Origin: Escherichia coli
GTDB lineage: Bacteria > Pseudomonadota > Gammaproteobacteria > Enterobacterales > Enterobacteriaceae
Assembly: GCF_003790525.1 (NCBI RefSeq)
Contig: NZ_CP033635.1
Direction: 5' to 3' (one strand)
DNA: 64,000 nucleotides
The translations under genes were made by a program, and so were the position numbers. The notes under the pieces are model-generated. The model saw nothing but the letters and a program-made list of their open reading frames with translations. It was not told the origin of the DNA and did no database searches. Of this stretch, positions 10,286 through 28,703 are shown one piece after another (position 1 is the stretch's first letter; each line of letters starts with the position of its first letter).

Positions 10286-10373
10286 TTTTGTAAACCTGTG
10301 CCTCAAGGTTTGTCTCCCCCCGGTGTGCAAAGCAAAAGGAAATTGGGAAAGGGGATAACAGGAAATTGATTGC

Positions 10374-10994: not shown

Positions 10995-11018
10995 TGTACG
11001 TTCAAGAGTATTAGTGTT

Positions 11019-14000
11019 ATGAATAAGATATATAAAGTCATTTGGAACCATACAACCCAAAAATGGGATGTTGTTTCAGAATTGACGAGTTGTAGAAAAA
11101 AATGTAAATCAACTCGCTTAGGAATTGCTTTATCAGCAATGGTTCTGGGGGGCGCTATTGCAATTAATTGCAATAACGCAATGGCAGATGTCATATTGTC
11201 ACCAGACTGGCGTCCGGGTACGAATAACTCGGGTGTTGGGGCTGCAACAGTAAGTGGTAAAACCGAATACATCACTGGTCCAAATGTCGTCCAGTCTGGT
11301 GGGTCAGGTCTTATCTGGATGACTGTAGAACAGGCAATTTTAAATGGTTACACCACTGGAGATAATTTATCCGGATTGATTTACGTCAATACCGGAGAAA
11401 AAACAAAAACCATTACAGTGAAGGATGAGGTTACTGGCGCTTATCAAACACTTCAAGTGTTTGATACTGACTCTTTCTCACAACGCGATGCGGGGACTGG
11501 AGGAAATGAAACCATTCCTGGTTTTAGTGGCACTGCAGATTTTTTCAATGCGACACGTTTTGTAACAGCCAATAATGGCGGTACAGCTATTTTGGATGTG
11601 GGTTCACCAGCAATCGGTAATTTTTTTAAAAATACACAGCTTGCTGTAGCTGATGGAGAAGGTTCCTCTGTTGTATGGAACTCGGTCAATGATTTTTATT
11701 TTCAGCCTGGTGCAACCATGCAGGGGGGCGGCGTTACTCAAAAAATCATTGACTCAATGAAATATGCTGGAACAATTACTGATTGGGCGGGAAAAGTACA
11801 CCATATTAACTCTCTTGATGATTTAAAGCAATATAATCAATATTTGATAAAGTCACTAGAGGACAAAACGCTTTCTTATAAGCAGTATGATGCTGAATTT
11901 AATAAGGCCCTTATTGTCACCAAGCATAATTACAATGTGGATATGACCGCTGGGGGACGTATAGACTCAACTCCTTACAAAGAAAATGTAGGGCTGCTTG
12001 CTGTTCTCCATGCAACCAATAACGCACGAGCAATATTAGGTAAAACGGGTAAATTAACTGGAGTTCTTCCTGCCTATGGGAATGGAGGAGGGATCGTTGC
12101 AACTAATGGTGGGACCGGTGTTAATGAAGGGGTCATTGATGCCATTGGTACTGAAATGATTGCCTATCAAGACAGTACCATTGTTAACGATGGTACACTT
12201 TTTGTTTGGGATAATAATGATAAATATGCTCTCCAGGCAGAGGGGATGGTTGCCGGTAGTAATGGTTCTTCAGCCATTAATAATGGTGTTATTAATATTC
12301 GCCCATTTAAAAATGCTTTCGCTCCAGAGGGGATTAACACCGCAATTGTTGTTAGTAATGGGGGCATGGCAACAAATAAAGGCACAATAAATATTACTGC
12401 CGATGCATCAACTAATGATAATAATGGCAAAACACGAGGTGTAAATGTTGGAGCTGGAGGCTCTTTTATTAACTCGGCCTTCGGGAGCATCAATGTAGGT
12501 ATTGCGGAGGATAAAACTGCGACTCATTCGGCTGTGGGTTCTGTTGCGATTGAAGTACAAAATGGTGCAAACAAAGTCGTTAATGAAGGTACTATTTTTT
12601 TGGGCAGGGGGGCTCAGGGGAACTACGGAATCCTGGCAAAGGATGCCGGGAGTGTTGATGTGGTAAATAAAGGGACTATCACTATTGACGGTTATGACAG
12701 TGATGCACCTGCACTGAATGTTGGCATGCTGGCAAATAATAGCTCCGGGATGAAAAACTCCGGGATTATCAATGTTAATGGTCTGAACAGTACCGGGCTA
12801 CAGGTAATCAATGCAGGGCAATTAAATTCTGACGGTACGATAAATGTTGGCGGCGAGGGTATCAGTAGTGGTTTCCGTAACTATGGTGCCTGGGTGGAAG
12901 GTGCCAGAAGCAATGTTAATGTATCCGGAAAAATCAATCTTTCCGGTACTGGTGCTGTGGGGGTTTTTGCCAAAGATGGCGGCAGTCTTACCTTGTCAGG
13001 CAATGGTGCAGTGCTATTTGGCAGCAGCGATCAGATAGGCTTTTATGTCTATGGAAAGGACTCTGCCATTCATAATACCGGAAGCGGTGTTATGGATGTG
13101 TCCACTGAAAACTCAACATTATTCCGTATTGCCAGCGGTGCGACATTCCAGGGAACTGCAGATGCTTCTTCTGCACTTACGGCGTCTGGTAAGAACTCTT
13201 ATGCACTTATTGCCACGGGGAAATCGGATGGCGGTGTGGCCTCGACAGTAACGTCTGGAGGAATGACCATCAACCTGACGGGGGAGGGGGCTACAGCGAC
13301 TTTAATTGAAGGGGGAGCGCAGGGCACAATTGAAAGTAATGCCATTATCAATATGGATAATGCCAGTGCAATAGCCGGTATTGCGGATGGCAATGGCTAT
13401 GATATTTCCGGCAAACTCATTAATCCGAAGGACAAGACCACACTATTAACGGCGGGGGCTCAGTTAAGTTCCACCCAGGATAAAGTGACCGGGTATATCG
13501 CCCGTAATGGGGCCACTCTAAATAATACCGGTAATATCATCTTTACTGGAAAGAATACAGTGGGCGTCCGGGTTGAGGAGGGTGCTGTTGGTACCAACAG
13601 CGGAAATATTACAGTTCAGGATGGTGGTGTGGGACTAATTGCTAATGCCACACAAGATGTTACAACGATTAATAACTCGGGAAATCTCGTTCTCAAGGGG
13701 GGAGATAATGCTAACCGTACAACGGGTATAAAAGCATCTGGTACAACAACAACGGTTAATATGACCGCGGGTACTATATCTTTGCAGGGACAGGGGGCGA
13801 TTGGCGTTGAGGCCAGCAATAAAGGGACTGTTAACCTTGATGGCTCGGCAGTACCGAACTTTGCTTCTGACGGCTCTGGTATTACCGATCAGATTGCTTT
13901 TCGTATTATCGGAGATGGTGCAACCATTAAGACGAATATTGCACCGGGAACTCTGCTGGATGCCAGTGGGGAACGTTCTGTACTTTTCCGTATTGAAGAT

Positions 14001-17000
14001 GGGGCAAAACAGGCCGGCTCTTTGCTGATGAAAACCTCCGGGACAGGCAGCCGTGGTATCTGGGCCACAGGGAAAGGGAGCAATGTCCTGGCTGATGCTG
14101 GCAGTGATTTCCAGATCCTGGGCGCTCAGGCTCAGGGATTATATGTAACTGGTGGTGCGACAGCGACGCTGAAACAGGGGGCATCAGTTAACCTTGTAGG
14201 GGATGGCGCTGTTGTCGCGGAAGTTGACGGAAATGAATACGCTCTGGATGGCAGTATTACACAAACGAATACTGGCTCGGTTATTACCAATGAGGCAGAT
14301 ATCTCTTCGCCGCTGAATAATGCCAAGGGCTTTATTACGCGTAATCAGGGACTGTTGATTAACAGCGGCAACATTGATTTCACTACCGGTACAGATAATA
14401 TCGGCGTCTGGGTTGATAATGGTCGTTTTGAAAATACAGGAAGCCGTATAGCGGTCAATGGCGTTGCATTATTTGTTGAAGGTGAACACGCTCAGATTAC
14501 CAGCACGGGAGGGGATATCGTCGCTGTGGATGGTGAGGCTGCCATTAAGCTGGGGGCGGGCGCGTCACTGAACCTGGCAGGGAGTGGCCTGGGAACGATC
14601 GAAGGTCAGAAAAATGCGCATGGCATCCTGCTGGATACAGGGGCTGTGGGGCTGGTTATTGATGGTGCGAAAATCAATGTTAATGCTGCAGGTGCGGTCG
14701 GTCACGGGATTGAGAACCGTGCAGAAATTGAAGGCATTCAGTTAACCAATACGACTGAAATTAATGTGGCTGATGGCATTGGTGTGCGAACTTCTGCTTC
14801 TCTGGCCAAGACCAACAGCGGCACTATTAATGTAGACGGCAGTGGAATTGCACTGGCGTTCCAGAAAGCTGACGGAAGTGAAACCGATAATAACCTGGAT
14901 ATGTCTGACTCCGGCGGATTAGTCATTAATCTGAAAGGCACGGGCGGCACGGGTATTTTCGCCAACACTAAAGATGGTGCTGTCGTGAAGAGTGGTGCAA
15001 GTGTCAATGTTACACAGGCCGATGGCGGTTCCGCTCTGGTGGTTAACAATGCGGCCAGTGAAGTGGTTCAGAGCGGTAATCTCATCTCTGCTTCTCTGAG
15101 TCATGCCGTAGTGGATGCTTCAAAAGCACAGTCCTTTACCAATAAAGGTCAGATTAAAGCTGCGTCCGCCACCGGGACTGCAATGGCGTTTGATGACGCC
15201 GTGAATACCACCGTACTGAATGACAGCGGTGCTGAAATTCAGGGGGTTGTGGCTCTGAACGGCGGTGATAACACATTCACCAATAAAGGCAGTATTACCG
15301 GAACCGTCAGTGCAAAAGAGGGTAACAATACATTTTTATTTGATGATGGCAGCATACTGACAGGAGAAGTGGCTGCAGGAAATGGCAATAACAATGTAAC
15401 GCTCAATGGTAAGGCTCATGTTGATAAGGTTACTGCCGGTACCGGGAAGAACACCTTCACCATTAAAGGCGAAGGGGCAACCTGGAACCTGCTGGATGGC
15501 GGGCAGGGAGATTCTGATTCCCTGATTTTTGATAACGCCATTCATACGCTGGATTCTGCTGTAAAACTACGGAATTTTGAACATGTCGGGCTGAAGAACA
15601 GTTCGCTTGTCACTCTGAAGGAAGCTCTTGTGCTGACCGATGGGGGGACCGGCCCGGGTTCCGTCGATATTGAATCGGGCAGCGAACTGGCCATTATTCC
15701 CGCAGTTGCAGGCAACTTTACCTTTGATCCACTGTTAACAGGCAAAGGAACACTGTCTGCCCGTCTTGATGCCGACACATCTGCTTTTGAATTCAGCCAT
15801 AACGTCGGGGATCAATTTGCCGGAACTCTGAAGCTGGGTACCAGTAGCTTTGCTCTGGAAGGGCTGAATACGAGCGGGTTAACCCATGCAATGCTGATGT
15901 CTGAAACCGGGAATATCACAACGGTTGGCTCCGGTGTTCAGCAGATTGGCGGTCTTGGGTTCAATGGCGGAACGCTGATTTTTGGTTCCGTTATGCCGGG
16001 CGATACCATTGCCAGCAACAGTATTGAAACCTCTGCTGCAGGTACGCTGGATATCCGGGGGAAAGGCACAATTCAGGTCACCATGCCAGATGAAGTGATT
16101 AATGATATTCCGGCTGTTGATACCCGTAAGAATTTGCTGGAGCAGGATGATGCGCAGACCCTGGTCACACTGGTGAATGCAGCGGGTACCGTCACCGGTA
16201 CTGGCGGGCAACTGCAACTGGTGGATGAAAACGGGCAGGCTATTTCTCACAGTCAGACGTTTGATGTCACTCAGGGCGGTGAAGTTGTAGCTCAGGGAAA
16301 TTATGACTATAAGCTGCTGGGAAGCTCCGACGGTGTTAAAGGTGACGGACTGTACATAGGCTATGGGCTGAAGTCGCTGGATTTACAGGGAACCGGTGAT
16401 AAAGCGCTGGTGCTGACACCGAGAGCGAATGCCCAGGGACTGCAGACAGATCTTGGTGCACAGTTAACGGGGGCAGGGGATCTGGCCATCGAAGCTGCGG
16501 GGCAGGTTGTCACACTGTCTAACGGCGGTAATAACTACACCGGGGATACGCTGGTGCGCAGCGGCACACTGCAGATGGCAAATGATAATGTGCTTGGCGC
16601 TACAGGTAGCCTGAACGTTGCCAGCAATGCCGTCTTCAGAACAGACGGATACAGCCAGACGGTGGGTGCACTGCAGACAGAAACGGGAGCGCACATTCAG
16701 CTTGATAGCGGTAGTGTACTCACGGTCAGCGGCACGCAGCGTCAGCCGGGCGATGATAATGGTGGCATCATTGAAAACAATGTGCTGACCGGAGACGGTA
16801 CGCTGGCTGTCACGGGCAGCAATCTGACGGTACATGGCACCAATATCGGGTTCACCGGTAATGTCAGCCTTACCCGGGGTTCGCTGGTTGAAATGAACGG
16901 CGCACAGGGGCTGGGAAGCCAGGGCTCCATCAGCTTTGAAAGCCTTAATGATCGCCTGGCGATTGATATCGCCGACGGTAGCGGAGTCAGCAGTAACCTG

Positions 17001-18932
17001 AGTAAATCGCTTTCCGGAAAAGGTTCAGTGGGCATACTGAACACCACTGATCTGACACTTTCCGGAGATAACCGTAATTTCAGCGGTGAATTCCGTGTGC
17101 AGAAAGATGCTGCTCTGCGGGCTTCAGATGAAAAACACCTGGGCACCGGGCTGATTGACAGTGATGGTGTCACCTGGCTTACCGCCAGTGGAAACTGGTT
17201 ACTGAAGAATGATATTACTGGCTCCGGCGCTCTGGTGAAACAGGGGGCGGGTAATCTGATCATTAATCATGAGCTGACTTATACCGGTGATACCACGGTT
17301 GAGAATGGCGTTCTGATTGTCGGTGATGATTCAGTCACCCGTGCCGCTGGCGCGACGTTGTCAGGATCCAAAAACATTCATGTTCTTAATGGCGGCACAC
17401 TGAGTGGGCTGGGGACCGTTTCGGGTCAGGTTAATAACCAGGGAACACTGGCATCACTGAATGCTCTCTCAGGTTATGAAACGGCAGAGGCGGGCAATTT
17501 TACCGTTGGCTCACTGACCAATACCGGCGTCATTCGTCTGGCCGGTGGTAAGACAGGAAATACCCTGACCGTAAATGGCGATTACACTGGTGGCGGTACG
17601 TTAATTATCAATACCGTGCTGGGGGATGATACTTCTGCCACTGACAAACTGATTGTCACGGGTAACACCTCCGGTGATACCGGCGTGGTGGTGAATAATG
17701 TCCGGGGCCAGGGGGCTCAGACCGCTGACGGCATTGAGATTGTGCATGTCGGTGGGCAGTCTGACGGTAACTTCAGACTGCAGAACCGTGCGGTGGCAGG
17801 GGCATGGGAATATTTCCTGCATAAAGGTAATGCGGGTGGTACTGACGGTAACTGGTATCTGCGTTCTGAATTGCCGCCAGAACCACAACCGCAGCCGCAG
17901 CCACAACCGCAGCCACAGCCACACCCCACGCCGGATAAACCTGTACAGAAGGTCTATCGTCCGGAAGCGGGCTCTTATATTGCGAACATAGCGGCAGCCA
18001 ACACGCTGTTCAACATCAGAATGCACGATCGTGAGGGGGAAACTTACTATACCGATGTGTTTACTGGTGAGAAGAAAGCAACAAGTATGTGGATGCGTCA
18101 TATCGGCGGTCATAATCGCTGGAAGGACAGCAGTTCACAGCTGAATACGCAAAGTAACCGTTATGTTGTGCAACTGGGTGGCAGCATTGCGCAATGGACT
18201 GACGGTCAGGACCGTCTGCAACTGGGGATTATGGCCGGTTATGGAAATGAGAAGAGTTCCACGACATCCTCGCTTTCGGGATATAAATCTAAAGGTGCGA
18301 TCAATGGATACAGCACCGGTTTATACGGAACGTGGCAGCAGAATGACGGTAATGACAACGGGGCTTATGTCGATACCTGGATCCAGTACGGATGGTTTAA
18401 TAATACCGTTAATGGTGAAAAACTGGCTGCGGAGTCCTGGAAATCCCGTGGATTTACCGGTTCAGTGGAAGCGGGTTATACCTTTAAAGCCGGCGAATTT
18501 ACCGGTAGCCAGGGTAGTCACTATGACTGGTATATTCAGCCGCAGTCCCAGATCACGTGGATGAATGTAAGAGCCAGTGAGCATACGGAGAAGAATGGCA
18601 CGAAAGTTCAGCTCAGCGGAGACGGTAATATCCAGAGTCGTCTGGGCGTCAGAACTTACCTGAAAGGTAAGAGTGCGTCTGATGATAATAAGGCGCATCA
18701 GTTCGAGCCATTTGTGGAAGTTAACTGGATCCATAATACACGGAGCTGGGGTGTCAAAATGGATAATACGGCACTCAGTCAGGACGGAGCTACAAATATT
18801 GCTGAAGTCAAAACGGGTGTTCAGGGTAAATTGTCAGATAACCTGAATGTCTGGGGCAATGTTGGTGTTCAGGCTGGCGATAAAGGGTACAGTGATGCCC
18901 AGGCAATGCTGGGTATTAAATATATATTCTAA
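11019..18932 (+). CDS. Type Va autotransporter adhesin, AIDA-I/UpaE-like, 2637 aa
   Basis: Extended signal peptide motif MNKIYKVIWNHTTQKWDVVSEL; long Gly/Asn/Thr-rich beta-helical passenger; (PQ)n linker; C-terminal beta-barrel ending ...GIKYIF. Confidence 0.9.
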   Translation: MNKIYKVIWNHTTQKWDVVSELTSCRKKCKSTRLGIALSAMVLGGAIAINCNNAMADVILSPDWRPGTNNSGVGAATVSGKTEYITGPNVVQSGGSGLIWMTVEQAILNGYTTGDNLSGLIYVNTGEKTKTITVKDEVTGAYQTLQVFDTDSFSQRDAGTGGNETIPGFSGTADFFNATRFVTANNGGTAILDVGSPAIGNFFKNTQLAVADGEGSSVVWNSVNDFYFQPGATMQGGGVTQKIIDSMKYAGTITDWAGKVHHINSLDDLKQYNQYLIKSLEDKTLSYKQYDAEFNKALIVTKHNYNVDMTAGGRIDSTPYKENVGLLAVLHATNNARAILGKTGKLTGVLPAYGNGGGIVATNGGTGVNEGVIDAIGTEMIAYQDSTIVNDGTLFVWDNNDKYALQAEGMVAGSNGSSAINNGVINIRPFKNAFAPEGINTAIVVSNGGMATNKGTINITADASTNDNNGKTRGVNVGAGGSFINSAFGSINVGIAEDKTATHSAVGSVAIEVQNGANKVVNEGTIFLGRGAQGNYGILAKDAGSVDVVNKGTITIDGYDSDAPALNVGMLANNSSGMKNSGIINVNGLNSTGLQVINAGQLNSDGTINVGGEGISSGFRNYGAWVEGARSNVNVSGKINLSGTGAVGVFAKDGGSLTLSGNGAVLFGSSDQIGFYVYGKDSAIHNTGSGVMDVSTENSTLFRIASGATFQGTADASSALTASGKNSYALIATGKSDGGVASTVTSGGMTINLTGEGATATLIEGGAQGTIESNAIINMDNASAIAGIADGNGYDISGKLINPKDKTTLLTAGAQLSSTQDKVTGYIARNGATLNNTGNIIFTGKNTVGVRVEEGAVGTNSGNITVQDGGVGLIANATQDVTTINNSGNLVLKGGDNANRTTGIKASGTTTTVNMTAGTISLQGQGAIGVEASNKGTVNLDGSAVPNFASDGSGITDQIAFRIIGDGATIKTNIAPGTLLDASGERSVLFRIEDGAKQAGSLLMKTSGTGSRGIWATGKGSNVLADAGSDFQILGAQAQGLYVTGGATATLKQGASVNLVGDGAVVAEVDGNEYALDGSITQTNTGSVITNEADISSPLNNAKGFITRNQGLLINSGNIDFTTGTDNIGVWVDNGRFENTGSRIAVNGVALFVEGEHAQITSTGGDIVAVDGEAAIKLGAGASLNLAGSGLGTIEGQKNAHGILLDTGAVGLVIDGAKINVNAAGAVGHGIENRAEIEGIQLTNTTEINVADGIGVRTSASLAKTNSGTINVDGSGIALAFQKADGSETDNNLDMSDSGGLVINLKGTGGTGIFANTKDGAVVKSGASVNVTQADGGSALVVNNAASEVVQSGNLISASLSHAVVDASKAQSFTNKGQIKAASATGTAMAFDDAVNTTVLNDSGAEIQGVVALNGGDNTFTNKGSITGTVSAKEGNNTFLFDDGSILTGEVAAGNGNNNVTLNGKAHVDKVTAGTGKNTFTIKGEGATWNLLDGGQGDSDSLIFDNAIHTLDSAVKLRNFEHVGLKNSSLVTLKEALVLTDGGTGPGSVDIESGSELAIIPAVAGNFTFDPLLTGKGTLSARLDADTSAFEFSHNVGDQFAGTLKLGTSSFALEGLNTSGLTHAMLMSETGNITTVGSGVQQIGGLGFNGGTLIFGSVMPGDTIASNSIETSAAGTLDIRGKGTIQVTMPDEVINDIPAVDTRKNLLEQDDAQTLVTLVNAAGTVTGTGGQLQLVDENGQAISHSQTFDVTQGGEVVAQGNYDYKLLGSSDGVKGDGLYIGYGLKSLDLQGTGDKALVLTPRANAQGLQTDLGAQLTGAGDLAIEAAGQVVTLSNGGNNYTGDTLVRSGTLQMANDNVLGATGSLNVASNAVFRTDGYSQTVGALQTETGAHIQLDSGSVLTVSGTQRQPGDDNGGIIENNVLTGDGTLAVTGSNLTVHGTNIGFTGNVSLTRGSLVEMNGAQGLGSQGSISFESLNDRLAIDIADGSGVSSNLSKSLSGKGSVGILNTTDLTLSGDNRNFSGEFRVQKDAALRASDEKHLGTGLIDSDGVTWLTASGNWLLKNDITGSGALVKQGAGNLIINHELTYTGDTTVENGVLIVGDDSVTRAAGATLSGSKNIHVLNGGTLSGLGTVSGQVNNQGTLASLNALSGYETAEAGNFTVGSLTNTGVIRLAGGKTGNTLTVNGDYTGGGTLIINTVLGDDTSATDKLIVTGNTSGDTGVVVNNVRGQGAQTADGIEIVHVGGQSDGNFRLQNRAVAGAWEYFLHKGNAGGTDGNWYLRSELPPEPQPQPQPQPQPQPHPTPDKPVQKVYRPEAGSYIANIAAANTLFNIRMHDREGETYYTDVFTGEKKATSMWMRHIGGHNRWKDSSSQLNTQSNRYVVQLGGSIAQWTDGQDRLQLGIMAGYGNEKSSTTSSLSGYKSKGAINGYSTGLYGTWQQNDGNDNGAYVDTWIQYGWFNNTVNGEKLAAESWKSRGFTGSVEAGYTFKAGEFTGSQGSHYDWYIQPQSQITWMNVRASEHTEKNGTKVQLSGDGNIQSRLGVRTYLKGKSASDDNKAHQFEPFVEVNWIHNTRSWGVKMDNTALSQDGATNIAEVKTGVQGKLSDNLNVWGNVGVQAGDKGYSDAQAMLGIKYIF
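17874..17933 (+). repeat. Pro-Gln dipeptide repeat linker (CCGCAG/CCACAA units)
   Basis: PPEPQPQPQPQPQPQPHPTP in the translation; tandem 6-nt units in the DNA. Confidence 0.85.
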
Positions 18933-18939
18933 TCACACA

Positions 18940-18965
18940 GTGGCAGGAGGGGACCTCCTGCCACC
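18940..18965 (+). terminator. Strong hairpin 3' of the autotransporter
   Basis: TGGCAGGAGG-GGA-CCTCCTGCCA perfect 10-bp stem just after the stop; no clear T-run, so the terminator call is tentative. Confidence 0.35.
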
Positions 18966-18979
18966 TCAGGGTTGTCATA

Positions 18980-19510
18980 ATGAGTTCTGTAATGAAATTT
19001 TCTGTTGTTAATGCAGTAGTGCTGCTGTTGCTGATTGTACTTACTGGTGTTTTTTATATGAAAAAGTCAAAAGAAATTGCAGTTGTTAATATCGATGCTA
19101 TTTATAATCAGTCTGCCGCCGGAGACATGGCCAGAAAACATCTGAATGAGGTTAAGAGTATTCTTGAAAAAGGATATGAGGATGCGCAAAAAGTATTCGC
19201 AGATAACGCGAATAAAGAGGCGCTGCTTCTTGATGCCAGACAAAAACTGGAACGACAATATGTTATTGAGGAAAATAGCGCAAAAATGGTGTTATCCCGT
19301 GCGATAGATAATGCTATAGGCACATGGAGAAAAGACAATCCTAAAAATATTGCCGTATTGTCTTCAGGTGTTGTGCTTGCGCATAACGAGTCAGCTGATA
19401 TCACCAAAGAAGTCATGACTCTGGTTGAAAAAGAAAATCTGGTTTTTAATAAATTACCCAAAGTGGAAGTGCACAATAAGAATGAAGAGAAACCAGAACA
19501 AAGTAAGTAA
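18980..19510 (+). CDS. Skp/OmpH-like periplasmic chaperone paralog
   Basis: 176-aa ORF with signal/TM segment; IAVVNIDAIYNQSAAG and NIAVLSSGVVLAHNESADITKEVMTLVEK resemble Skp IAIVNMGSLFQQVAQ and [29 protein letters not shown] from memory. Confidence 0.55.
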   Translation: MSSVMKFSVVNAVVLLLLIVLTGVFYMKKSKEIAVVNIDAIYNQSAAGDMARKHLNEVKSILEKGYEDAQKVFADNANKEALLLDARQKLERQYVIEENSAKMVLSRAIDNAIGTWRKDNPKNIAVLSSGVVLAHNESADITKEVMTLVEKENLVFNKLPKVEVHNKNEEKPEQSK

Positions 19511-19947
19511 TCACTAGATTCTGACGATTTCCAGAAGGGAGATTCAGCAGGCCAGCATCTGTAATCATTCAGATTTTCTGGCTTGCTGCTAAATATGGTT
19601 GCTGAGAAAAATAGCAGTCCAGTAATTTATTCAGATTACTGAATATAATAATTTTTCAGGAACGGTTATGCTGAAGGTAGTATGTTTAATCGACACAATT
19701 ATTTGCTGTGTCTAATATGAGGTGACATTTTTATGATCACTGACCAGCAAGACTGACCCGTATTGATTAGCCTGATTATTGGCAACTTATTGGGGTAGTC
19801 ATTTTGACATCGAATGGGGGAGGTTTCCAGTTAAGTTCACGAATGCATGATGATTTGCGTTCACATATCGAAGTGCTGGTTGACTATACTAAGGATTTTA
19901 AGATAACTCACTGATTGTAAGTGGGTTATTGCGAGGGGGATGATAAA

Positions 19948-19966
19948 TGGTGTCCCTGCAGAAATC
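19948..19966. repeat. Degenerate copy of argW 3' end (putative distal att of the satellite)
   Basis: TGGTGTCCCTGCAGAAATC versus the argW 3' end TGGTGTCCCCTGCAGGAATC at 32636-32655 (17 of 20); about 12.7 kb from the tRNA. Confidence 0.5.
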
Positions 19967-20183
19967 ATCTTAATTATTATTATGTTGATTTATATGTAGT
20001 TTATTTTTGATTTTTTGTTTTTGTACCCGTTTTGTGCCCGTTTTATTCGATTCCCAATTTAAACTTCGATTCTAGAAAGGTGAGTAGGGGAGGTTATCAT
20101 TTCATGTATCATTATTGTAGACACAGAATAATTACTCGCCTATCCTCACTGTAGACACACAATAGATACAGGAGTTAACCCAC

Positions 20184-20432
20184 ATGCGCACACAGGTTGT
20201 ATTGCAAAAATGGGGTAATAGCATTGCCCTTCGACTAACGGGAAACCTTAAAACCGTTCCGGGGTTTTCAGTGGGTGATATCGTCAACGTTGAAATTAGT
20301 GAAAAGGGGCTTTTTGTAGAAAAGCCTGCACGCCGTCGCCTGAGTGAAGCCGAATTACTCGCCGGGATAACGCCAGTTACAGCGCACGCGGACGAAATTG
20401 CCACCCCATTCAATGAGGAGGTTGATTACTGA
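20184..20432 (+). CDS. MazE/PemI-family antitoxin (AbrB/SpoVT fold)
   Basis: 82-aa ORF MRTQVVLQKWGNSIALRL...; stop overlaps the toxin start. Confidence 0.75.
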   Translation: MRTQVVLQKWGNSIALRLTGNLKTVPGFSVGDIVNVEISEKGLFVEKPARRRLSEAELLAGITPVTAHADEIATPFNEEVDY

Positions 20433-20776
20433 TGTTTGTACCTAAGCGTGGTGATATTTGCTGGCTGGATTTTGAGCCGCAGAAAGGAAAAGAGAGCGGA
20501 AAGTATCGCCCGGCACTCATACTATCCCATGAGCAATATAACCGACTCACCGGGCTTGTCATATGCTGCCCCATAAGTACGAGCATACGAAATGCTCCCA
20601 CAGAAGTTCCGGTAACAAATCTGGACGCCCCCAGCGTGGTAGCAACCACACTCATTCAAACCCTTGACTGGCGTCAGCGGAAAGCGCGCTTAATCACAGA
20701 GGCAGAAGATGGGGTATTTAATGATGTGCTTGAAAGAGTCATTACCCTGATTGGTGGAGAGCATCTGCTTAAGTAA
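20432..20776 (+). CDS. MazF/PemK-family toxin (endoribonuclease)
   Basis: 114-aa ORF MFVPKRGDICWLDFEPQKGKESGKYRPALILS..., PemK/MazF-like N-terminus; coupled to the upstream antitoxin. Confidence 0.75.
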   Translation: MFVPKRGDICWLDFEPQKGKESGKYRPALILSHEQYNRLTGLVICCPISTSIRNAPTEVPVTNLDAPSVVATTLIQTLDWRQRKARLITEAEDGVFNDVLERVITLIGGEHLLK

Positions 20777-20819
20777 AAGGAGGGCTGAGAAGCCCTCAAC
20801 GTTACCAGAAATTTCCTTG

Positions 20820-22091
20820 CTATTCTTTCCAGTCAATCCCATCCAGTAAGCACCCTGCCTCATATTGCCCAACAACCCAGTCAAGATTGCAGGACTCATA
20901 GAAAGCGAGGCGATTATACTGTGGCTCGTTTTTTACCAGACCACGAACGGAGCCGCGTTGCCAGTACAGGCACAGATTGGCAAGAGGTGTGATCAGCACA
21001 GCATTGTCCGGGAAAAATGGAACGGTCACAGCCGGAAGATTCCCCAGCACGGGCTTTTTAATGATTTCCTCGTTAAGCAAAATTTCCTGATTCATCTGCG
21101 ATGGATCAAGACGGTTTATCAAAGGCCATTGTTTACGGACCAGAGTATTGTGACTGCATACGGCCACAATGCCTTCCTGCCACTGTTCATCAATCATGGA
21201 TTGCCAGGCATCCAGAACAAGTGCATCTATTGTATGGTGTGTACCGCGTGTATTGCTTGTCGGCGATGAAACAGAAAGACCGCTGATAACCCTTCCCGCT
21301 GCTTCGTTTCGAAACTTCTGCAACCATCCGACGCCGCAATCGTCACGGCCCGGATATGTTTCAGGATCAGATTGATCGGCATAGTGTGTGCCGTTAAAAC
21401 CAATCTGAATTAAATCCAGCCATTTCCGGCGTTCAAAAGCGGCACGGGCGCTTCCTTCAAGACCATTTGCGGACGCGTGAGCATCGACATTGTCGTAGCT
21501 CAACGCAAAATCAAAATTAACCTGCTCGCAGCGGTAGCCTCTTGAAACCAGTGAATGCGCCTGTAGTGGCGAACGGCGCTCGTGAGGTGGCGATGTACGT
21601 GCCAACGGCCGGGAAGCGTCTACCAGCACAACCTGACCTGATATATCCGTAACAGGCACGGGGGTTATTTCAGCAAGGAAATTTGCCTGCCATCCACTGG
21701 CAAGCGTTGCACTCTGGCGGGGAACGGGTTCAACTTCTGACGAATAGCGCGCAGTATCACCGGAAAAGTGCAAATCCTTCGGATGCTTTCCGGTTATCGA
21801 CTCGATAGCGCAATTGAAAACCATCTGAGACTGTTGATTTCGTTGTGATACAACATAATCAGCAGTGCAATTATAACACTCAATGCCGTCGTTATTACCC
21901 CCACCGCTTGCAGTATGCAGGGTGTGAAGCTCAAGCTCACGCTCCAGTTTTTGATATTCATTGTCCAGCGCGCGACGCGTCTCATCGCTTATGCTTGCTG
22001 TGTTTGCTTTCAGGCGATTCCGGGACATTAACTCCCTGAGTCGGCTCACTATATCAGCGCCGTGCAAATGTGAAATATTCAGACCGCCCAT
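20820..22091 (-). CDS. Hypothetical protein B of a two-gene cargo operon (about 423 aa), no recognisable family
   Basis: Start taken at the internal ATG (MGGLNISHLHG...) that overlaps the upstream gene stop as TAATG; the longer 470-aa ORF is read as an artefactual extension. Confidence 0.6.
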   Translation of the reverse strand: MGGLNISHLHGADIVSRLRELMSRNRLKANTASISDETRRALDNEYQKLERELELHTLHTASGGGNNDGIECYNCTADYVVSQRNQQSQMVFNCAIESITGKHPKDLHFSGDTARYSSEVEPVPRQSATLASGWQANFLAEITPVPVTDISGQVVLVDASRPLARTSPPHERRSPLQAHSLVSRGYRCEQVNFDFALSYDNVDAHASANGLEGSARAAFERRKWLDLIQIGFNGTHYADQSDPETYPGRDDCGVGWLQKFRNEAAGRVISGLSVSSPTSNTRGTHHTIDALVLDAWQSMIDEQWQEGIVAVCSHNTLVRKQWPLINRLDPSQMNQEILLNEEIIKKPVLGNLPAVTVPFFPDNAVLITPLANLCLYWQRGSVRGLVKNEPQYNRLAFYESCNLDWVVGQYEAGCLLDGIDWKE

Positions 22092-22801
22092 TACTGCCAC
22101 CCCCGGCAGAGTTCTCTGCCCTCCGCAAGGTCGCGCATTTTTTCTGGATTCTGTCGCGCCGCGCTCCATTGTACAGGTGAAGGGGCGTTCCTGATTGCGT
22201 GGCTTACCGAATCCGGCAGTTTCTCCGGGCAATAACGAAGCGGATTGGAGGCATCGCTCTCAATATCGTTAATCCGGCCGCGAATCAGCCCGACACTTTC
22301 AACAATATCTGCCATTTTCAGTGTTTCACATATTTTCTTTTCTGCGTTATACAGCGGCTGGCCAAGCAGCTCACATAAACCACGAATCAATAGCAGAGCA
22401 GGGGTCAGCTCGTTAATCAGTCCGGGAAGTGCTTTTGCAAATATCTCTGCCCGCAACTTATTATCAATGCTTTGGTAAGCACAGCCAGCCTCTGCCGCGT
22501 TATAACGACACTCCAGTAACCTGATGCGCGCCTCATCATGCAATACCCGCAGACGCTCAAGATTTTCTCGCGCCACACCCGCCTGAATGCATAATTTTGC
22601 GGAGGCTTCCGTTTTTGCGCCCAGCGCAGACAGGATTGAGTTCTGCCAGTCACGTTCGAGAGACTCCAGCTCCCCTTTCGTCTGTTCGATAGTCGCTTCC
22701 AGATTGGTGATTAATGATTCCTGTTCGCTGAGTTTTGCCATGGCCGTATCAAACTGTGCTTTACATGCCTGATGCCTGGCGCTTGCCTGAGTTATATCCA
22801 T
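22091..22801 (-). CDS. Hypothetical protein A of the two-gene cargo operon (236 aa), predicted coiled-coil N-terminal half
   Basis: Heptad-like, charge-rich N-terminus (KLSEQESLITNLEATIEQTKGELESLERD); no known motif recognised; first gene of the operon. Confidence 0.6.
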   Translation of the reverse strand: MDITQASARHQACKAQFDTAMAKLSEQESLITNLEATIEQTKGELESLERDWQNSILSALGAKTEASAKLCIQAGVARENLERLRVLHDEARIRLLECRYNAAEAGCAYQSIDNKLRAEIFAKALPGLINELTPALLLIRGLCELLGQPLYNAEKKICETLKMADIVESVGLIRGRINDIESDASNPLRYCPEKLPDSVSHAIRNAPSPVQWSAARQNPEKMRDLAEGRELCRGWQ

Positions 22802-22965
22802 TGTTTGCTCCTGTAATACATTTTTTACTTACGCCCATTTTTTCCATATTGCGTAATACATTCCAGCCGATTTTGTTCTCGTAATACGCTCACAATACTG
22901 TTGTATTACGCTTTCTTATATCGCGGGTGTTAAATCCCGGTATAAGCAATCAGGGAGGCAACACG

Positions 22966-23199
22966 ATGAAAAAACAAAAGAAAATGCGATACGTATTACG
23001 CTGTATTCGTATCCCGCACGAAATCGACCATAAAATAAATCAGATATGTAAGGACAGAGAGATGAACTACTCCCAGTGCGTCAGAATGTTTATCTGTCAG
23101 GGAATTAAGGCCGGGGAAACGCAGGAAGAAGACCGCAACGGGCGCAATGTAGCGGGAGATGTGTGGGCCTGGGCAAATGACCAGAACTACACGACGTAA
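22966..23199 (+). CDS. Small hypothetical protein, possibly a ribbon-helix-helix regulator
   Basis: Start taken at MKKQKKMRYVL...; divergent from the cargo operon; beta-strand then two helices by eye. Confidence 0.35.
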   Translation: MKKQKKMRYVLRCIRIPHEIDHKINQICKDREMNYSQCVRMFICQGIKAGETQEEDRNGRNVAGDVWAWANDQNYTT

Positions 23200-23249
23200 T
23201 ACAGAAATAACGTAGCCGGTTACACTCGCTGGCTGCGTTATACAAATCA

Positions 23250-23432
23250 CTATGAAGTTTTCAACTTCCTGCGCTTAGTGATGCGTACAAACGACTCAAG
23301 CGTACAAAAACAAGCCCCACACTCAATATTACTGCACTGGTAATACGTTTTGTAGATGTTTTGTTCGTGCTCTTCCAACGAACGACTACGGGTTCGGGCT
23401 GAAGCGCCACAGGCCGGGCAAGGGAAAGACAT
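23250..23432 (-). CDS. Ogr/Delta-family zinc-finger late-gene activator
   Basis: 60-aa ORF MSFPCPACGASARTRSRSL...YYQCSNIECGACFCTLESFVRIT aligns with P2 Ogr (MFHCPLCQHAAHARTSRYI...YHQCQNVNCSATFITYESVQRYIV). Confidence 0.8.
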   Translation of the reverse strand: MSFPCPACGASARTRSRSLEEHEQNIYKTYYQCSNIECGACFCTLESFVRITKRRKLKTS

Positions 23433-23793
23433 ATCACGCTCCTCTTACTGGTGTGAAATTTGACCTATTATATCTCCTGCCGCCCCCTCTGGCTGTATCA
23501 AATAAACCCGCAGCAGTCGCCGCGTATTACGGACGGACGCACCGTTCCCATGCTCACTCGTCACATTCCCCGTATCAGTTCTCTCTTACCGTAAGAACGG
23601 CTCTGGCTGGCGATAAAACTAACCCGGTCGGGCATTCCCGCAGTCTTTAGAGAAAATGTAATTTACCCCCTGAAACGTGGGCTGTTCCCCCGTCACCTGC
23701 GCGCGAAAAACTCACCGTTTTTTGTGCACGCACGAAATCGCCCTCCGGGTGCGCCAGTACTGGGCCGGATGGGCAAAAAGTTACTCTAAAAAA

Positions 23794-23820
23794 TTGTGCA
23801 AATTTGTGCACTTTTGTGCA
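23794..23820. promoter_or_regulatory. Three direct TTGTGCA repeats at 10-bp spacing (operator-like)
   Basis: TTGTGCA at 23794, 23804 and 23814, with a fourth copy at 23722; helical phasing suggests a DNA-binding protein array. Confidence 0.35.
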
Positions 23821-24042
23821 GATGAACAATAGCGTGAAAAAGAGTGCTTTTGAGAGATTTTTTATGGCAACTGCGCCGCGTGTATTACGTTTTTTACCAT
23901 CCCCGCCGCGCATGTACATACTTCATTTTTCTGCCAGACAACAGGGCAACTCCCCGTGACTGACAGCCCCAAAAAATCAATGATTGATGTTGCATTTTTG
24001 TTAAAGGTTAGACCAGTTGTTTTAGGGCTCTGCCTCATAATC

Positions 24043-24366
24043 CGGTGGGGGGTGCGCAAAGCGGTTACAACGGTTACAACACTCAAAAACACCACTTAAC
24101 AGCATGATTTTAATGGATATTGTTTGTAACCGCTTTGCGGTTACACTGCGGTTACAACGGTTACAGGTTTCAAAAAGCACTTTATTATCAATCAATTAAA
24201 AACTTAACCTGTAACCGCCTGTAACCTAACAAAACGGTTACATGTAACCGCGTTGTAACCGCTTTTATAACTCATCGGACCAGTTATAATATATTGATAT
24301 ATAATACAAAAATAAGTAATTTTAAATTTGTAACCGTTGTAACCGCTTTGCGCACCCCCCCCCAAA
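24043..24366. repeat. Iteron cluster flanked by a ~30-bp inverted repeat (candidate satellite origin)
   Basis: GGGGGGTGCGCAAAGCGGTTACAACGGTTAC (24045-24076) and its reverse complement (24330-24363); at least 8 GGTTACA/TGTAACC copies in both orientations in between. Confidence 0.7.
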
Positions 24367-24611
24367 CTTTAGCGCGACCCTTTAAAATGTTAATTAAACT
24401 CACTTACTCTGTATCTCTCTCGTTAACTCTCTGTTATTGAAATGTATCTCTCCACTGTTTCACTCTTTCTGATAATCAGGGGAAGCAAAAAATTGATGGC
24501 GGCACTACTGCAATATGGCCACCATTGCATTGCTGTTACCGTTGGTTCTGGCCAACAAAAAAGGTCAGCGGGAAACTGACCTCTTTTGCTGTGAATGCGG
24601 CGTTCTGCGGG

Positions 24612-25616
24612 TTACTCTGCTGGCTCTTTTTCTTCGGTGATCACTATGTTGGCTACCGGGTTAAATCTCATGGCATCTGCCAGATAATCCGGTGCAAAAT
24701 GTGCGTATGCCATAGTCTGCTGAATTGTCGCATGCCCAAGGATTTTTTGTAGCGCAAGAATGTTGCCACCGTTCATCACAAAGTGACTGGCGAATGTATG
24801 CCGCAATACATGCGCAGCCTGCCCCCTCGGTAAATCGGGTTTTATTTTTTTTAATGCCCGGCAAAACTCTCTGTACTTCACATCAAACAGTCGCCCGGTT
24901 TCTTTTGTTTTTACGGCATCGCATATTTCCTGCGACACAGGCACCGTTCTTTTTCTACCGTTTTTGGTTTCCAGAAACGTTATTCTGTTATGAACTATTT
25001 GCTCTCCATGCAATCTGCTGGCCTCACTCCAGCGGGCTCCGGTACAAAGACACAAGAGCGCAACCCTTCGTTGATCTCCATTCAGCCCGTCAAGCAACAA
25101 TGTGACCTCGTTTTTTGATAAAAAGGCCATTTCCCGCTGCTTTACATAAAGAACAGGAATACCACGAACCGGATGCTCTGCATCCCACAAACCGATCTTT
25201 TTCAGGGCTGTAAACATCCCCGATAATCTGTTCATGTATCTGTTTGCTGAGGACGGCTTTAATCCTTCCGCAATTTTCTGCGATCGCCATGCAATGATTT
25301 TTAATTTGTTGAGTTCTGCCGCAAACATGTCAGCTCCAAGCTCATTAATAATTTTGCCAAGTTGCTGTTTATCCGTGTTTGCCTTTCGCCTGTGCTGACC
25401 GTGATAGACCCACCACAATTCCAGTAAATCGCTAAGCGTTCTCCGGTCGCGATAGCCCTGTATAAACTCGCGCTTTTCGGCGTTCGCTATGATGTACCGT
25501 TCAGTTGCTGTAGCTATCGATTTTTTGTCAAATATTCTTCTGATGCGCTTCCCTTTACGTCCGCATGGCCTGATATCGAGCAGCCACCGCCCATCATGCA
25601 TCTTTCTGATCGGCAT
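24612..25616 (-). CDS. Tyrosine recombinase (phage integrase family, XerC/D-like)
   Basis: Catalytic region ARWSEASRL ... HVLRHTFASHFVMNGGNILALQKILGHATIQQTMAYAHF; ATG at 25616 with GGAGG upstream, directly after the primase stop. Confidence 0.7.
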   Translation of the reverse strand: MPIRKMHDGRWLLDIRPCGRKGKRIRRIFDKKSIATATERYIIANAEKREFIQGYRDRRTLSDLLELWWVYHGQHRRKANTDKQQLGKIINELGADMFAAELNKLKIIAWRSQKIAEGLKPSSANRYMNRLSGMFTALKKIGLWDAEHPVRGIPVLYVKQREMAFLSKNEVTLLLDGLNGDQRRVALLCLCTGARWSEASRLHGEQIVHNRITFLETKNGRKRTVPVSQEICDAVKTKETGRLFDVKYREFCRALKKIKPDLPRGQAAHVLRHTFASHFVMNGGNILALQKILGHATIQQTMAYAHFAPDYLADAMRFNPVANIVITEEKEPAE

Positions 25617-25618
25617 GT

Positions 25619-28288
25619 TTAACTCCCCTCCTTGTAACTGAATATCCGGCATTTCAGTACTTCCGGCTCTCTGGCCTCGGCGACCCCTCTTCCGGCGTTT
25701 GCCTGTCTGGAGACCTCACTACGAATGGTTTTGCGGCCTGTCAAAGGTCGGGAACGTCCGGCTGCGAGCAACTCAATCATTTCGCGGTCAGTTCGGATCT
25801 CCACGCGGTGAATAGCGGCAGCCTGTGCCAGTTGCGGAATACTGATAGCAATCCCCTCGCGGCATCCCTTGCCGTAGTGGTTTACACCGTATTTTGTTAT
25901 GCCGTCCAGATAGTCGAACGCCTCCCAGAACGCTATTACTTCCGGCAAGTCATCCGTTACCGCTTTAACTTGTTCCGCTGCCATTCGTTCCAGTTCCTGG
26001 CATGTGGCATTAAGCCATTCATCCGGGATATCAATAACGCATTTCAGCGCCCTGACCAGCGCAATAAGTTGCGCGTGATTTTTGGCAATACGGGGATGGA
26101 GAATATTTTCGCAACCGCAAAGGCGGGTCGTTTCAGGCTCTGAGAGCGCCAGAAACATTTCCATAATTGCCCGTTCACGGCTGACTGCCCGATGAATAAA
26201 CCCTGACACCTTCTCAACGGGGTAGAGTTCCAGTCGTCTCGCCGCCAGCCGGGTATCAGACGAGTGGCGCTTTTTATCGGTATATATGCGAATCAGTCGC
26301 TCAATAATTGCAAGTGAGGCGTTTACCCTGGCATTCTGTGCAATCACGATAGCGCCCTTAAAATCCGGGTCATAGGTGTTGTTATTGTTGGTCTTAACGC
26401 CACGAACGCCGATACCGCCGCCGTTATAGAGGCTTTTCAGGTTATCGAAGTCAAACGCACCTCTTTTTTGCGCATTGCCTCCCCTGTCTGCTTCAATCAG
26501 AACAACAGGTAATCCGGCGACCTGTCCAAAGGTGCGCTTCCAGCCCGCCTCTGATCCTTTGGTTGGATCAACGCCTTCATAGTTGTCACGACCGCACAAC
26601 CGCCAGCAAAAATCAATCAATGTTGATTTACCCGTTCCGGGCTCCCCGGTGACTTCAAGGAAGGGGAAGGATTCTTCTTTATCCCGGATTTGTTCGCTGA
26701 ACAGGGAGCCCAACCAGAAAGCCAGGGTAATAATTCCTTTTTCACCAAAAGCCAGCCAGAGATCTTCCACCCAGGACTCTGTAAACTCATCCGGTTTTTT
26801 GTAGTTAATCTGTAATGTGGGTTTTTCGCTTAATGGTTTTGCGTTTATGCCATCAATTTCAAAATAATCTTCGTCATTGATTTCATAAGTTTTTCCCTTG
26901 TAAACAGCAATATCATTAAACAGCCATGCCCCAATCGCCTTGTTGTATCCGATAAAATCCTGACCAATAACCTCTTTTATTGCGGGAAGGTCATTTTTTA
27001 TTAATGCGTCAAGGTGCGCAGTTGTTCCGGTATAAATGCCGCCTTTTGCCACATGCAACAGGCGTTTTTTAAATTCAGATGCGGATGTCAATTGTCCTGA
27101 TGTAAAGGTGTTTTTCACCGTAGCACCATCCGGGAACGTAACACGGAAGTAATACCATGCTTCATCCGTGTCATTATTTCTAATGTAATAAAGCGGCGCT
27201 GGGTTACAGTTTGCGATTTCTTTTACTGCGCCAGATTCCTTAAGTGCAATTTTGCGCGCTTCATCCTCATCAACACTTCTCTCATTCTTGGCACGCTCTA
27301 CAGCTTTCATATAGCGCTCAATGTCCAGTTTGAACCAGAAAACACGGTTATCAAAAGTAAAATGAAATTCCTTCCGCTCACGAAAGGAAAATATTATTAG
27401 CGCCTTATCTCTCGGAGATTTCGCCAGCAATAAATCACCGTAATGACGGTATCTTTTCACATCATGGCCACGCAGCTTTCCGGCGATGTGTAAATCATTC
27501 CAGTCGCGTTTATTGTTGTTTTTACCTGGCAACGCCGCTGCCGTTCTCCAGCCGTCTTCGGCGCTGCGTTCTGCATGTTTTTTCGCGTAACGCTCACCCG
27601 CACGCCCGTTATCCAGCGCCCACACAATAACCGGACGGGGATTATCCCCGCACAGCTTCGCCAGCTCTTCCAGCGCCTTATCAGGGTAGTTCACGGCAGA
27701 CATGACAGAAACGGCCGCAATGCCATTCTGGTTAAGGCTGATGGCATCAAAGATGCCCTCACAAATCCAGATTTCTTTGGCCTTGCTTAAATCTGCTCCC
27801 GGATAAGCCCACCACAACCCCTTGTAGCTGCCGGAAAAATTCGCCTTGCGCGCGAAGCGTCCCGGTCGGTCTATGATGCGCTCCCACCACACGCCGTCAG
27901 CCAGCGTAAAACGCACAGTAGCGGCCTGTTCGCCGTTTTCCTTGTCCTGGTATCGCTCCTGAGTAAATGCGCCCTTCAGTGGCCCCACAGCAATATTGCG
28001 CGCCTCCTGAAGATAAGCTGCCACCGCTGCATATGGCTCGTCTTTCGTGCTGATATAACGATCTGACCATGATGAAAACACATCCGGGTAAAGTTCTTTG
28101 GTCAGCAGGTCTGTACCGCATTTATTTTCGCGCCCACAGTGTACGATGTACGGCCTTTCAAGGCTGGTAAACAACTCTTTCTTTCCACATTGCGGACAAA
28201 CACCATACCGGAGGTAGTTATTTTCTTCTTTGAAGTTGTAATCACGGATAAGACGGTTAATAATCTCTTTTCTGATGTCAGATTTCAT
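25619..28288 (-). CDS. Primase-helicase (P4 alpha / PICI Pri-Rep-like)
   Basis: N-terminal zinc finger CPQCGKKEL...HCGRENKCG, TOPRIM-like region, Walker A GEPGTGKST; start at the ATG with GGTGGAG SD rather than the upstream GTG. Confidence 0.85.
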   Translation of the reverse strand: MKSDIRKEIINRLIRDYNFKEENNYLRYGVCPQCGKKELFTSLERPYIVHCGRENKCGTDLLTKELYPDVFSSWSDRYISTKDEPYAAVAAYLQEARNIAVGPLKGAFTQERYQDKENGEQAATVRFTLADGVWWERIIDRPGRFARKANFSGSYKGLWWAYPGADLSKAKEIWICEGIFDAISLNQNGIAAVSVMSAVNYPDKALEELAKLCGDNPRPVIVWALDNGRAGERYAKKHAERSAEDGWRTAAALPGKNNNKRDWNDLHIAGKLRGHDVKRYRHYGDLLLAKSPRDKALIIFSFRERKEFHFTFDNRVFWFKLDIERYMKAVERAKNERSVDEDEARKIALKESGAVKEIANCNPAPLYYIRNNDTDEAWYYFRVTFPDGATVKNTFTSGQLTSASEFKKRLLHVAKGGIYTGTTAHLDALIKNDLPAIKEVIGQDFIGYNKAIGAWLFNDIAVYKGKTYEINDEDYFEIDGINAKPLSEKPTLQINYKKPDEFTESWVEDLWLAFGEKGIITLAFWLGSLFSEQIRDKEESFPFLEVTGEPGTGKSTLIDFCWRLCGRDNYEGVDPTKGSEAGWKRTFGQVAGLPVVLIEADRGGNAQKRGAFDFDNLKSLYNGGGIGVRGVKTNNNNTYDPDFKGAIVIAQNARVNASLAIIERLIRIYTDKKRHSSDTRLAARRLELYPVEKVSGFIHRAVSRERAIMEMFLALSEPETTRLCGCENILHPRIAKNHAQLIALVRALKCVIDIPDEWLNATCQELERMAAEQVKAVTDDLPEVIAFWEAFDYLDGITKYGVNHYGKGCREGIAISIPQLAQAAAIHRVEIRTDREMIELLAAGRSRPLTGRKTIRSEVSRQANAGRGVAEAREPEVLKCRIFSYKEGS

Positions 28289-28336
28289 ATATAAAACTCC
28301 ACCCCACTGCACCTTTTGCCGTGGGGTTTTTATTAA

Positions 28337-28636
28337 TTACTCGTTACTTATTGCTTTGGCAATCCCGGCGGTTTCAGCACTATGCCATGAAAAAATTCCG
28401 CCAGAAGTATGCATTCCTGACTTAATCACTCGTAATTCCCGATAAAGAATGTTAGTTAATGATTCCATTTCATTAATTTGCACTGGCATTCTCTCACTGG
28501 TATTAATTTCACCTGTCAATGCTGAAATGAGCGCAATAACATTTATTACATCTTCAAGATTCTCAATGGAATCTTCCGTGAAAAAACCAGCGTATTCTTT
28601 TTTGTATATATTGCGGATATTCTGATTTTCAGACAT
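28337..28636 (-). CDS. Hypothetical satellite protein
   Basis: 99-aa ORF in the same-strand gene array upstream of the primase. Confidence 0.4.
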   Translation of the reverse strand: MSENQNIRNIYKKEYAGFFTEDSIENLEDVINVIALISALTGEINTSERMPVQINEMESLTNILYRELRVIKSGMHTSGGIFSWHSAETAGIAKAISNE

Positions 28637-28703
28637 AAAAACTCCCCGACCCGTTAAGATCGAAATATAAATTTAATTCAGTTATCAGTTGGTAATTCGG
28701 TAA

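Follow-up and report, generated by a model that had tools for sequence, protein, structure and literature searches.

A 12.7-kb satellite-like element at the argW hotspot lies between the ipu-upaE adhesin module and the tRNA gene in Escherichia coli

Integration at the 3′ end of a tRNA gene with duplication of a short core, the position of the newest element closest to the tRNA, and the role of argW as a hotspot are already established. At argW, KplE1, HK620, Sf6 and Kapi1 use a 16–17 bp core, (A)ATGGTGTCCCCTGCAG (PMC8787464), and the csc genes are also found at this hotspot (PMC4366372). A phase-variable UpaE locus with an ipuS-UpaE switch has been described (PMC6083910), and the island is listed as PAI-CFT073-argW (PMC7545054). 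Satellite phage P4 offers one of the closest known integration systems: in its annotated attP, two 12-bp arm repeats are followed by 54 bp, a 20-bp core identical to the leuX 3′ end, a further 113 bp, a second pair of arm repeats and then int. P4-like satellites are defined in the literature by seven core components, namely int, alpA, alpha, epsilon, delta, sid and psu (PMC8628076). The locus described here adds an unremarkable example of tRNA-gene integration at a hotspot already known in E. coli. It defines precisely where a mobile element begins and ends at a much-used integration site and places the phase-variable UpaE adhesin island outside the satellite element, which is useful for annotation, island typing and the study of element stacking at argW.

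The window (the whole stretch of 64,000 nucleotides of E. coli contig NZ_CP033635.1 that was analysed) contains a single tRNA gene, argW, according to ARAGORN. Gapped local alignment of the argW 3′ region against the rest of the window, on both strands, gave its best match, ATGGTGT-CCCTGCAGAAATC, at 19947–19966. This segment very probably represents the attL core of a 12.7-kb phage-satellite-like element that entered the argW 3′ end by means of its own P4-family tyrosine integrase (31195–32499). The paired features are as follows.

32636–32710, minus strand: argW, tRNA-Arg(CCT), the integration target, intact (ARAGORN)
32635–32655: attR core, the 3′ end of intact argW together with one base of flank, reading ATGGTGTCCCCTGCAGGAATC on the plus strand
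19947–19966: attL core, a hybrid junction of bacterial flank, then ATGGTGTCCC (19947–19956), then element-borne TGCAGAAATC (19957–19966)

The attL core copies the last 20 nt of argW and one flanking base, and agrees with 32635–32655 at 19 of 21 positions, the exceptions being a 1-nt gap in the C-run and one G-to-A mismatch; ATGGTGTCCC is the 10-bp identity block, at 19947–19956, that attL and the argW 3′ end have in common. A sequence-only reading of this DNA had reported a copy of the argW 3′ end at 19948–19966, coordinates that are correct, with the A at 19947 matching as well. It had also placed the copy between a Skp-like gene and a toxin-antitoxin pair and not beside dsdC, and the core does sit between the OmpH/Skp-like gene (18980–19510) and a MazE/MazF-like pair (20184–20776), about 12.2 kb from dsdC. 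Taken by itself, the match is weak evidence, marginally better than chance. Its score of 30 exceeds the 25 of the next best real match in the window (the other top matches to the argW 3′ end score 24–25 and lie at unrelated places), and 2 of 100 mononucleotide shuffles of the window scored 30 or more. Ungapped repeat and pattern searches with up to three mismatches did not recover the argW copy at 19947–19966, because of the 1-nt gap. Both observations would fit a coincidental match of 19–20 nt with the real boundary of the element elsewhere. What gives the segment its significance is its position, since homology to the insert-free genome of SMS-3-5 breaks there and integrase arm-type repeats follow next to it.

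The region to the left of argW in the window is made up of the following features.

6761–7714, plus strand: dsdC
7689–19946: older accessory module, part of the published PAI-argW
8109–8678, minus strand: ipuB
9427–10056, plus strand: ipuA, 209-aa form
10374–10994, plus strand: LuxR-type regulator (ipuR)
11019–18932, plus strand: upaE
18980–19510, plus strand: OmpH/Skp-like gene
19957–32634: body of the integrated satellite-like element, the att-to-att unit being 12,688 bp

When window positions 18900–20900 were compared by BLAST with 5426 complete E. coli genomes, the match in many genomes ended exactly at 19966 and continued into tRNA-Arg. In one of these, SMS-3-5, the gene order is dsdC-ipuB-ipuA-regulator-upaE-ompH-argW-yfdC. 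Over about 14 kb on the left (5900–19966) the window differs from SMS-3-5 by one mismatch and one gap, both within the att copy, and over about 13 kb on the right (32635–45655) the alignment is 100%. The two flank alignments overlap on the 21-bp core, at positions 14048–14068 of the fetched SMS-3-5 locus, and the sole difference between the two sequences is the 12,688-bp att-to-att unit. The window is therefore an SMS-3-5-like chromosome plus one 12,688-bp unit, a clean before-and-after pair that gives the boundaries of the insert directly. The target is duplicated, the argW 3′ end being present at both ends of the insert with intact argW at one of them. An insert-free allele, with the ipu-upaE module joined directly to argW without a satellite, was found in 186 of the 5426 genomes; in this allele, as seen in SMS-3-5, just one core connects the two flanks.

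The element itself is present over at least 80% of its length, at 92–99% identity, in 19 genomes in a search of the 5426, and the int/att module is located at argW in all 19 genomes that carry it. We compared the junctions of ten copies (the window and nine fetched genomes), which represent four left-flank types and three P′-arm variants. GF60 has upaE-ompH as its left flank, as the window does. In HNSQ2209 and TOE17 the flank is dsdC with 95 bp of spacer; ETEC1701, ETEC4067, K_EC180 and E92 have the IntS arm of a KplE1-type prophage there, and PEC240 and HCP5S3_I2 a csc/DUF4942 remnant. Behind all four types the junction is constant: flank, then (A)TGGTGTCCC(C), then TGCAGAAATCATC, or in its longer form (A)TGGTGTCCC(C)TGCAGAAATCATCTTAATT at all junctions examined. 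The cross-genome alignment of argW islands that the sequence-only reading had proposed thus bears out the satellite boundaries, through SMS-3-5 as well as through the four flank types. That reading had itself named coincidence of the 19-bp match as the outcome that would overturn it. This possibility is refuted by the SMS-3-5 alignments, whose homology ends exactly here with a 21-bp overlap, and by the recurrence of the same junction behind four unrelated flanks; arm-type repeats at P4-like distances also speak against it, and we give it practically no credence.

The integration module comprises the following features.

19967–20099: P′ arm of the att site, specific to the argW integration module of this element
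20023–20033 and 20034–20044: tandem arm-type repeats of the P′ arm, GTACCCGTTTT and GTGCCCGTTTT, respectively
31195–32499, minus strand: P4-family tyrosine integrase with arm-binding domain, 434-aa ORF
32500–32634: P arm, between the integrase start and the core
32502–32513 and 32514–32524: tandem arm-type repeats of the P arm, ATACCCGCTTTT and ATACCCATTTT, respectively

The integrase gene is intact and adjoins argW, and arm-type repeats lie on both sides of the core. Aligned with P4 Int over 417 residues, about 94–95% of either protein, it shows 53% identity (E = 2e-155), and its match to NCBIfam NF007246 is below the curated cutoff (215 vs 434 bits). The homology is full-length and takes in the arm-binding N-terminal domain as well as RSSELRFARW, HGFRTMA and SH..VRAAY, which are conserved in the alignment with P4 Int and which we take to be the catalytic motifs of tyrosine recombinases. 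Translation probably starts at 32457, giving the 420 aa annotated in GF60. An arm-repeat motif defined after looking at the arms, [AG]T[AG]CCC[AG][CT]?TTTT, has only four matches on both strands of the 64-kb window: two tandem copies 57 bp inside attL, and two tandem copies that directly precede the int start, some 110 bp from attR. The likeness to the P4 system thus extends from the full-length homology of the integrases to a core that corresponds to about the last 20 nt of a tRNA gene, to two tandem arm repeats some 55 bp away on one side and two some 110 bp away on the other, directly upstream of int, and to the final position of int beside the intact tRNA. The two differ in target, leuX for P4 and argW for the element in the window. 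Unlike that of P4, the core of this element is imperfect with respect to its target (a 1-nt gap and one mismatch), the sequence of the arm repeats is different, and the gene order relative to int-att is reversed. In related satellites with other integrases, shared homology runs only from 20100 to about 29940, so 19967–20099 and the int side together form one exchangeable integration cassette.

Two differences separate the attL core from argW, which always reads CCCC and GGAATC in the genomes compared. The G-to-A change is identical in 10 of 10 junctions, whatever the flank or P′-arm variant, and is therefore element-borne (attP/P′ arm) and not a product of decay; the sequence-only reading had called the copy degenerate, and "hybrid attL with element-borne differences" describes it better. 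In eight junctions the C-run has three residues (CCC), and in the other two, those of E92 and PEC240, it has four (CCCC); these two genomes carry nearly the same satellite as HNSQ2209, which has CCC. Because the run is polymorphic among near-identical satellites, the case for an element-borne deletion with a crossover left of the C-run is not clean. CCC was also found in the attL of a different satellite, which carries psu and sid and has another P′ arm, beside upaE in CH4811, and a satellite of N3 at the same site has CCCC.

The junction could instead be a decayed scar, in which attP was originally a perfect argW 3′ end, the crossover lay deeper in the tRNA gene, on the T-loop/T-stem side, and the missing C and/or the G-to-A change arose after integration, maybe locking the element in place. 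The polymorphism of the C-run, which extends to members of the same flank type, fits such decay, as does the CCCC of N3, and no excised form was found in the collections searched. But the G-to-A change behind four flank types and with three P′-arm variants is as invariant as expected of an element-borne base, the CCC of CH4811 stands in a different satellite with a different P′ arm, and decay would require the same C to be lost at least four to five independent times, against about two changes if CCC was carried in attP. On these grounds decay appears improbable, and it would be more parsimonious for the C deletion to have been carried in attP.

We propose that the attP of the element carried an imperfect copy of the last 20 nt of argW, with integrase arm-type repeats on both sides in a P4-like layout. 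Integration would have left argW intact at the integrase-proximal end (attR, 32635–32655) and produced a hybrid at the far end, composed of bacterial flank, the shared block ATGGTGTCCC, the element-borne TGCAGAAATC and the P′ arm. The mismatch is constant on the element side, so strand exchange must have taken place to its left, within (A)TGGTGTCCC(C)TGCAG. Most probably the crossover fell in the terminal 7–10 nt of the tRNA gene, (A)TGGTGT(CCC), a position that we infer from these junctions. The element may still be able to excise, in which case the predicted attP would read ...AAGTTGCG-ATGGTGTCCC(C)-TGCAGAAATCATCTT... and the predicted repaired attB ...GGGGGATGATAA-ATGGTGTCCCCTGCAGGAATCGAAC.... 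BLAST of the reconstructed 403-bp attP against the 5426 complete E. coli genomes and against plasmid and phage collections gave no excised or circular form, and exact attP junction patterns, in both CCC and CCCC forms, gave none among IMG/VR viral contigs and JGI metagenome contigs.

The module to the left of attL is the adhesin locus described earlier, since ipuB, ipuA, ipuR and upaE all lie between dsdC and argW. Window positions 5900–19956 are identical to SMS-3-5, in which PGAP names IpuB, IpuA and UpaE, as it does in GF60. The window thus has in 7689–19946 the same genes as PAI-CFT073-argW (ipuB, ipuA, the LuxR-type ipuR and upaE) but differs from it in that the module is separated from argW by the satellite. 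The ipuA product of 209 aa has the length annotated in SMS-3-5 and GF60 and presumably represents the full-length form; no inversion of 9900–10450 relative to these two genomes was seen. In the published switch, the OFF orientation of ipuS goes with full-length IpuA (PMC6083910).

Module and satellite are adjacent and both lie between dsdC and argW, an arrangement that would also be expected of a single composite island moving as one unit. They are separable in both directions, however. The module is joined to bare argW in the 186 genomes mentioned above, the satellite occurs at argW without the ipu-upaE module in at least eight genomes (including HNSQ2209, TOE17, ETEC1701, E92 and PEC240), and other elements occupy the same nucleotide beside the module in CH4811, N3 and LWY24. 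Sequence identities are discordant too: the module of the window is 99.99% identical to that of SMS-3-5 and 98.4% identical to that of GF60, against 99.3% for the satellite and its copy in GF60. The bare-argW genomes and the four-flank junctions refute a composite island, which we consider hardly conceivable. From the 186 bare-argW genomes and the other elements found at the same nucleotide it follows that the module lies outside the satellite and predates it here. The sequence-only reading had seen the copy as an att-like junction of two modules, with the recombinase/autotransporter module outside the satellite, and on both points it was right. In our proposed order of events, the ipu-upaE module would already have stood beside argW and would then have been pushed 12.7 kb away by the satellite. 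GF60 is the only genome among the 5426 with the same junction of upaE and satellite, and its identities suggest either a separate acquisition of the satellite or its transfer between backgrounds. An IS21-family (ISSso4-like) insertion, which the window lacks, is present in the GF60 satellite (fetched GF60 locus 19648–21955).

How the module itself arrived is a separate matter. Its dsdC-ipuB junction is common to 236 of the 5426 genomes, and its left edge lies inside the 3′ end of dsdC, at about 7689, and not at a repeat; dsdC homology stops at about 7688–7692 in about 2470 of 2707 matching genomes. Because this edge lies inside the gene, the last 8–9 dsdC codons (from about 7689) differ from the K-12 type, so that the protein has the tail EQV-SQYECYTL in the window but EQV-KTTS in genomes of the K-12 type. 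The 95-bp spacer of those genomes is missing from the window at this edge. The module might descend from an earlier site-specific insertion at argW whose integrase and distal att copy were later lost. Its right edge coincides with the argW 3′ end to the nucleotide, it is present in only about 236 of 5426 genomes, parts of it are AT-rich (29–33% G+C in 7715–10994), and it is listed in the literature as PAI-CFT073-argW (PMC7545054). To the left, however, neither a distal att repeat nor an integrase or its remnant was found. A search of 7660–8120 on both strands for the argW 3′ end and for the K-12 dsdC-flank/KplE1 core gave only 8–10-nt chance matches, which includes the interval 7715–8108 where a further att remnant had been suspected, and nowhere else in the window was there a further att-like sequence above chance. 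Searches of 7600–20000 by tblastn with the satellite Int, IntS and P4 Int gave no integrase fragment except weak matches to ipuB. The only exceptions in this interval are the FimB-type invertases ipuA and ipuB. With the last codons of dsdC and the 95-bp spacer replaced, the dsdC edge fits homologous or illegitimate replacement as well as it fits a decayed insertion. A site-specific origin for the module is accordingly a possibility that we entertain with some doubt, and of the successive insertions suggested for argW only that of the satellite is shown.

In upaE-type genomes, the 6 nt directly to the left of the argW 3′ end are TGATAA (window 19941–19946), and the same bases belong to the KplE1 P arm in K-12 (fetched locus 24707–24712), which could be counted in favour of a site-specific origin. 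As a remnant of a KplE1-type P arm the hexamer was rejected and left as a coincidence, homology not extending beyond these 6 nt and the core; chance could account for it, as could an ancestral core of greater length or an earlier IntS-type element that left this trace.

The gene content of the element is as follows.

20184–20776, plus strand: MazE/MazF-like pair, beside attL
20820–22091, minus strand: P2 gpN-type major capsid homologue with an N-terminal extension
22091–22801, minus strand: 236-aa ORF beside the capsid homologue, where P4 has psu and sid
23250–23432, minus strand: Ogr/Delta-like zinc finger
24612–25652, minus strand: second tyrosine recombinase, 346 aa, Xer/integron-integrase-like
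25619–28312, minus strand: Toprim DNA primase, 897 aa, phrog_1139
29282–29809, minus strand: Icd-like protein
30363–30584, minus strand: AlpA/Vis-type excisionase-regulator candidate

When all 13 P4 proteins were compared with the element, matches were obtained only for Int (53%), Vis (36% over 45 aa), a weak Ogr/Delta finger (E = 3e-4) and a 27-aa patch of alpha, which is the only trace of a P4-type alpha primase-helicase. P4 Psu, Sid and Epsilon gave no match to 19900–32700 (tblastn, E ≤ 0.01), and no P4 cos was found in the element. The label "P4-like satellite" was therefore rejected for the element as a whole, which is without psu, sid, epsilon and a P4-type alpha. The element integrates in the manner of P4 but falls outside the seven-component definition of P4-like satellites, and "satellite" is a reasonable but putative functional label for it.

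The capsid homologue belongs to PHROG 70 (E = 2e-77) and is 32–39% identical to the capsids of P2-type phages such as 186 and PSP3; the adjacent 236-aa ORF gave no PHROG or other family match. A gene similar to the capsid homologue is also present in the N3 element. Satellites of this kind, which bring a helper-type capsid gene of their own, may form a family separate from P4-like elements. Like the P4-like satellites that carry a defence hotspot (Rousset et al. 2022; Moura de Sousa and Rocha 2022), the element is small and integrative, encodes an integrase, AlpA and an Ogr/Delta-like finger, and has a toxin-antitoxin-like cargo pair at one end, adjoining the att site. Unlike them, it lacks psu, sid and epsilon and has a P2 gpN-type capsid homologue, and its MazEF-like pair is not recognised by PADLOC; the PADLOC models likewise recognised neither the capsid homologue nor the second recombinase as defence proteins. 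Rather speculatively, the element might belong to an undescribed family of P2-helper satellites that combines a P4-type int/att cassette with a primase of another type, one more tyrosine recombinase and a P2 gpN-type capsid protein of its own, and whose attP core is imperfect by design, confining strand exchange to the last 7–10 nt of argW; we think this unlikely as a whole. Another satellite that targets argW has these core differences, the lost C and the mismatch, in part as well.

Several smaller features were noted within the element. The second tyrosine recombinase gene (24612–25652) lies directly downstream of the primase gene and is kept in related satellites that have other integrases and other sites; it might serve to resolve dimers of a plasmid state. 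A 29-nt direct repeat, 79% identical and with a spacing of 34 bp, contains TGTAGACACA and lies a short way upstream of the MazE-like gene (20107–20135 and 20141–20169); it is probably the operator of the toxin-antitoxin pair. A further direct repeat, with GCGGTTACAACGGTTACA, has its copies 87 bp apart in non-coding DNA downstream of the second recombinase (24061–24089 and 24148–24176), and is a candidate replication-origin iteron comparable to P4 ori/crr.

The IntS-type argW prophages (KplE1/CPS-53, HK620, Sf6 and Kapi1) resemble the element in using the same target at the same nucleotide position, with a core that overlaps that of the element. They differ in the family of their integrase (IntS, 385 aa) and in the perfect duplication of their core, (A)ATGGTGTCCCCTGCAG being present at both prophage ends in K-12; unlike the element in the window, they are also lambdoid/P22-like prophages, complete or cryptic, whose far end carries TorI/Xis. 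True tandem arrays at argW, in which a KplE1-type IntS prophage is followed by the satellite, were found in ETEC1701 and E92. In both, the joint is a hybrid att composed of the P arm of the IntS phage, the core and the P′ arm of the satellite (about 2981–3000 of the ETEC1701 locus and about 2480–2500 of the E92 locus), and both arrays fit the expected rule that the newest element lies beside the tRNA. In E92, IS5/IS903 insertions disrupt the satellite integrase.
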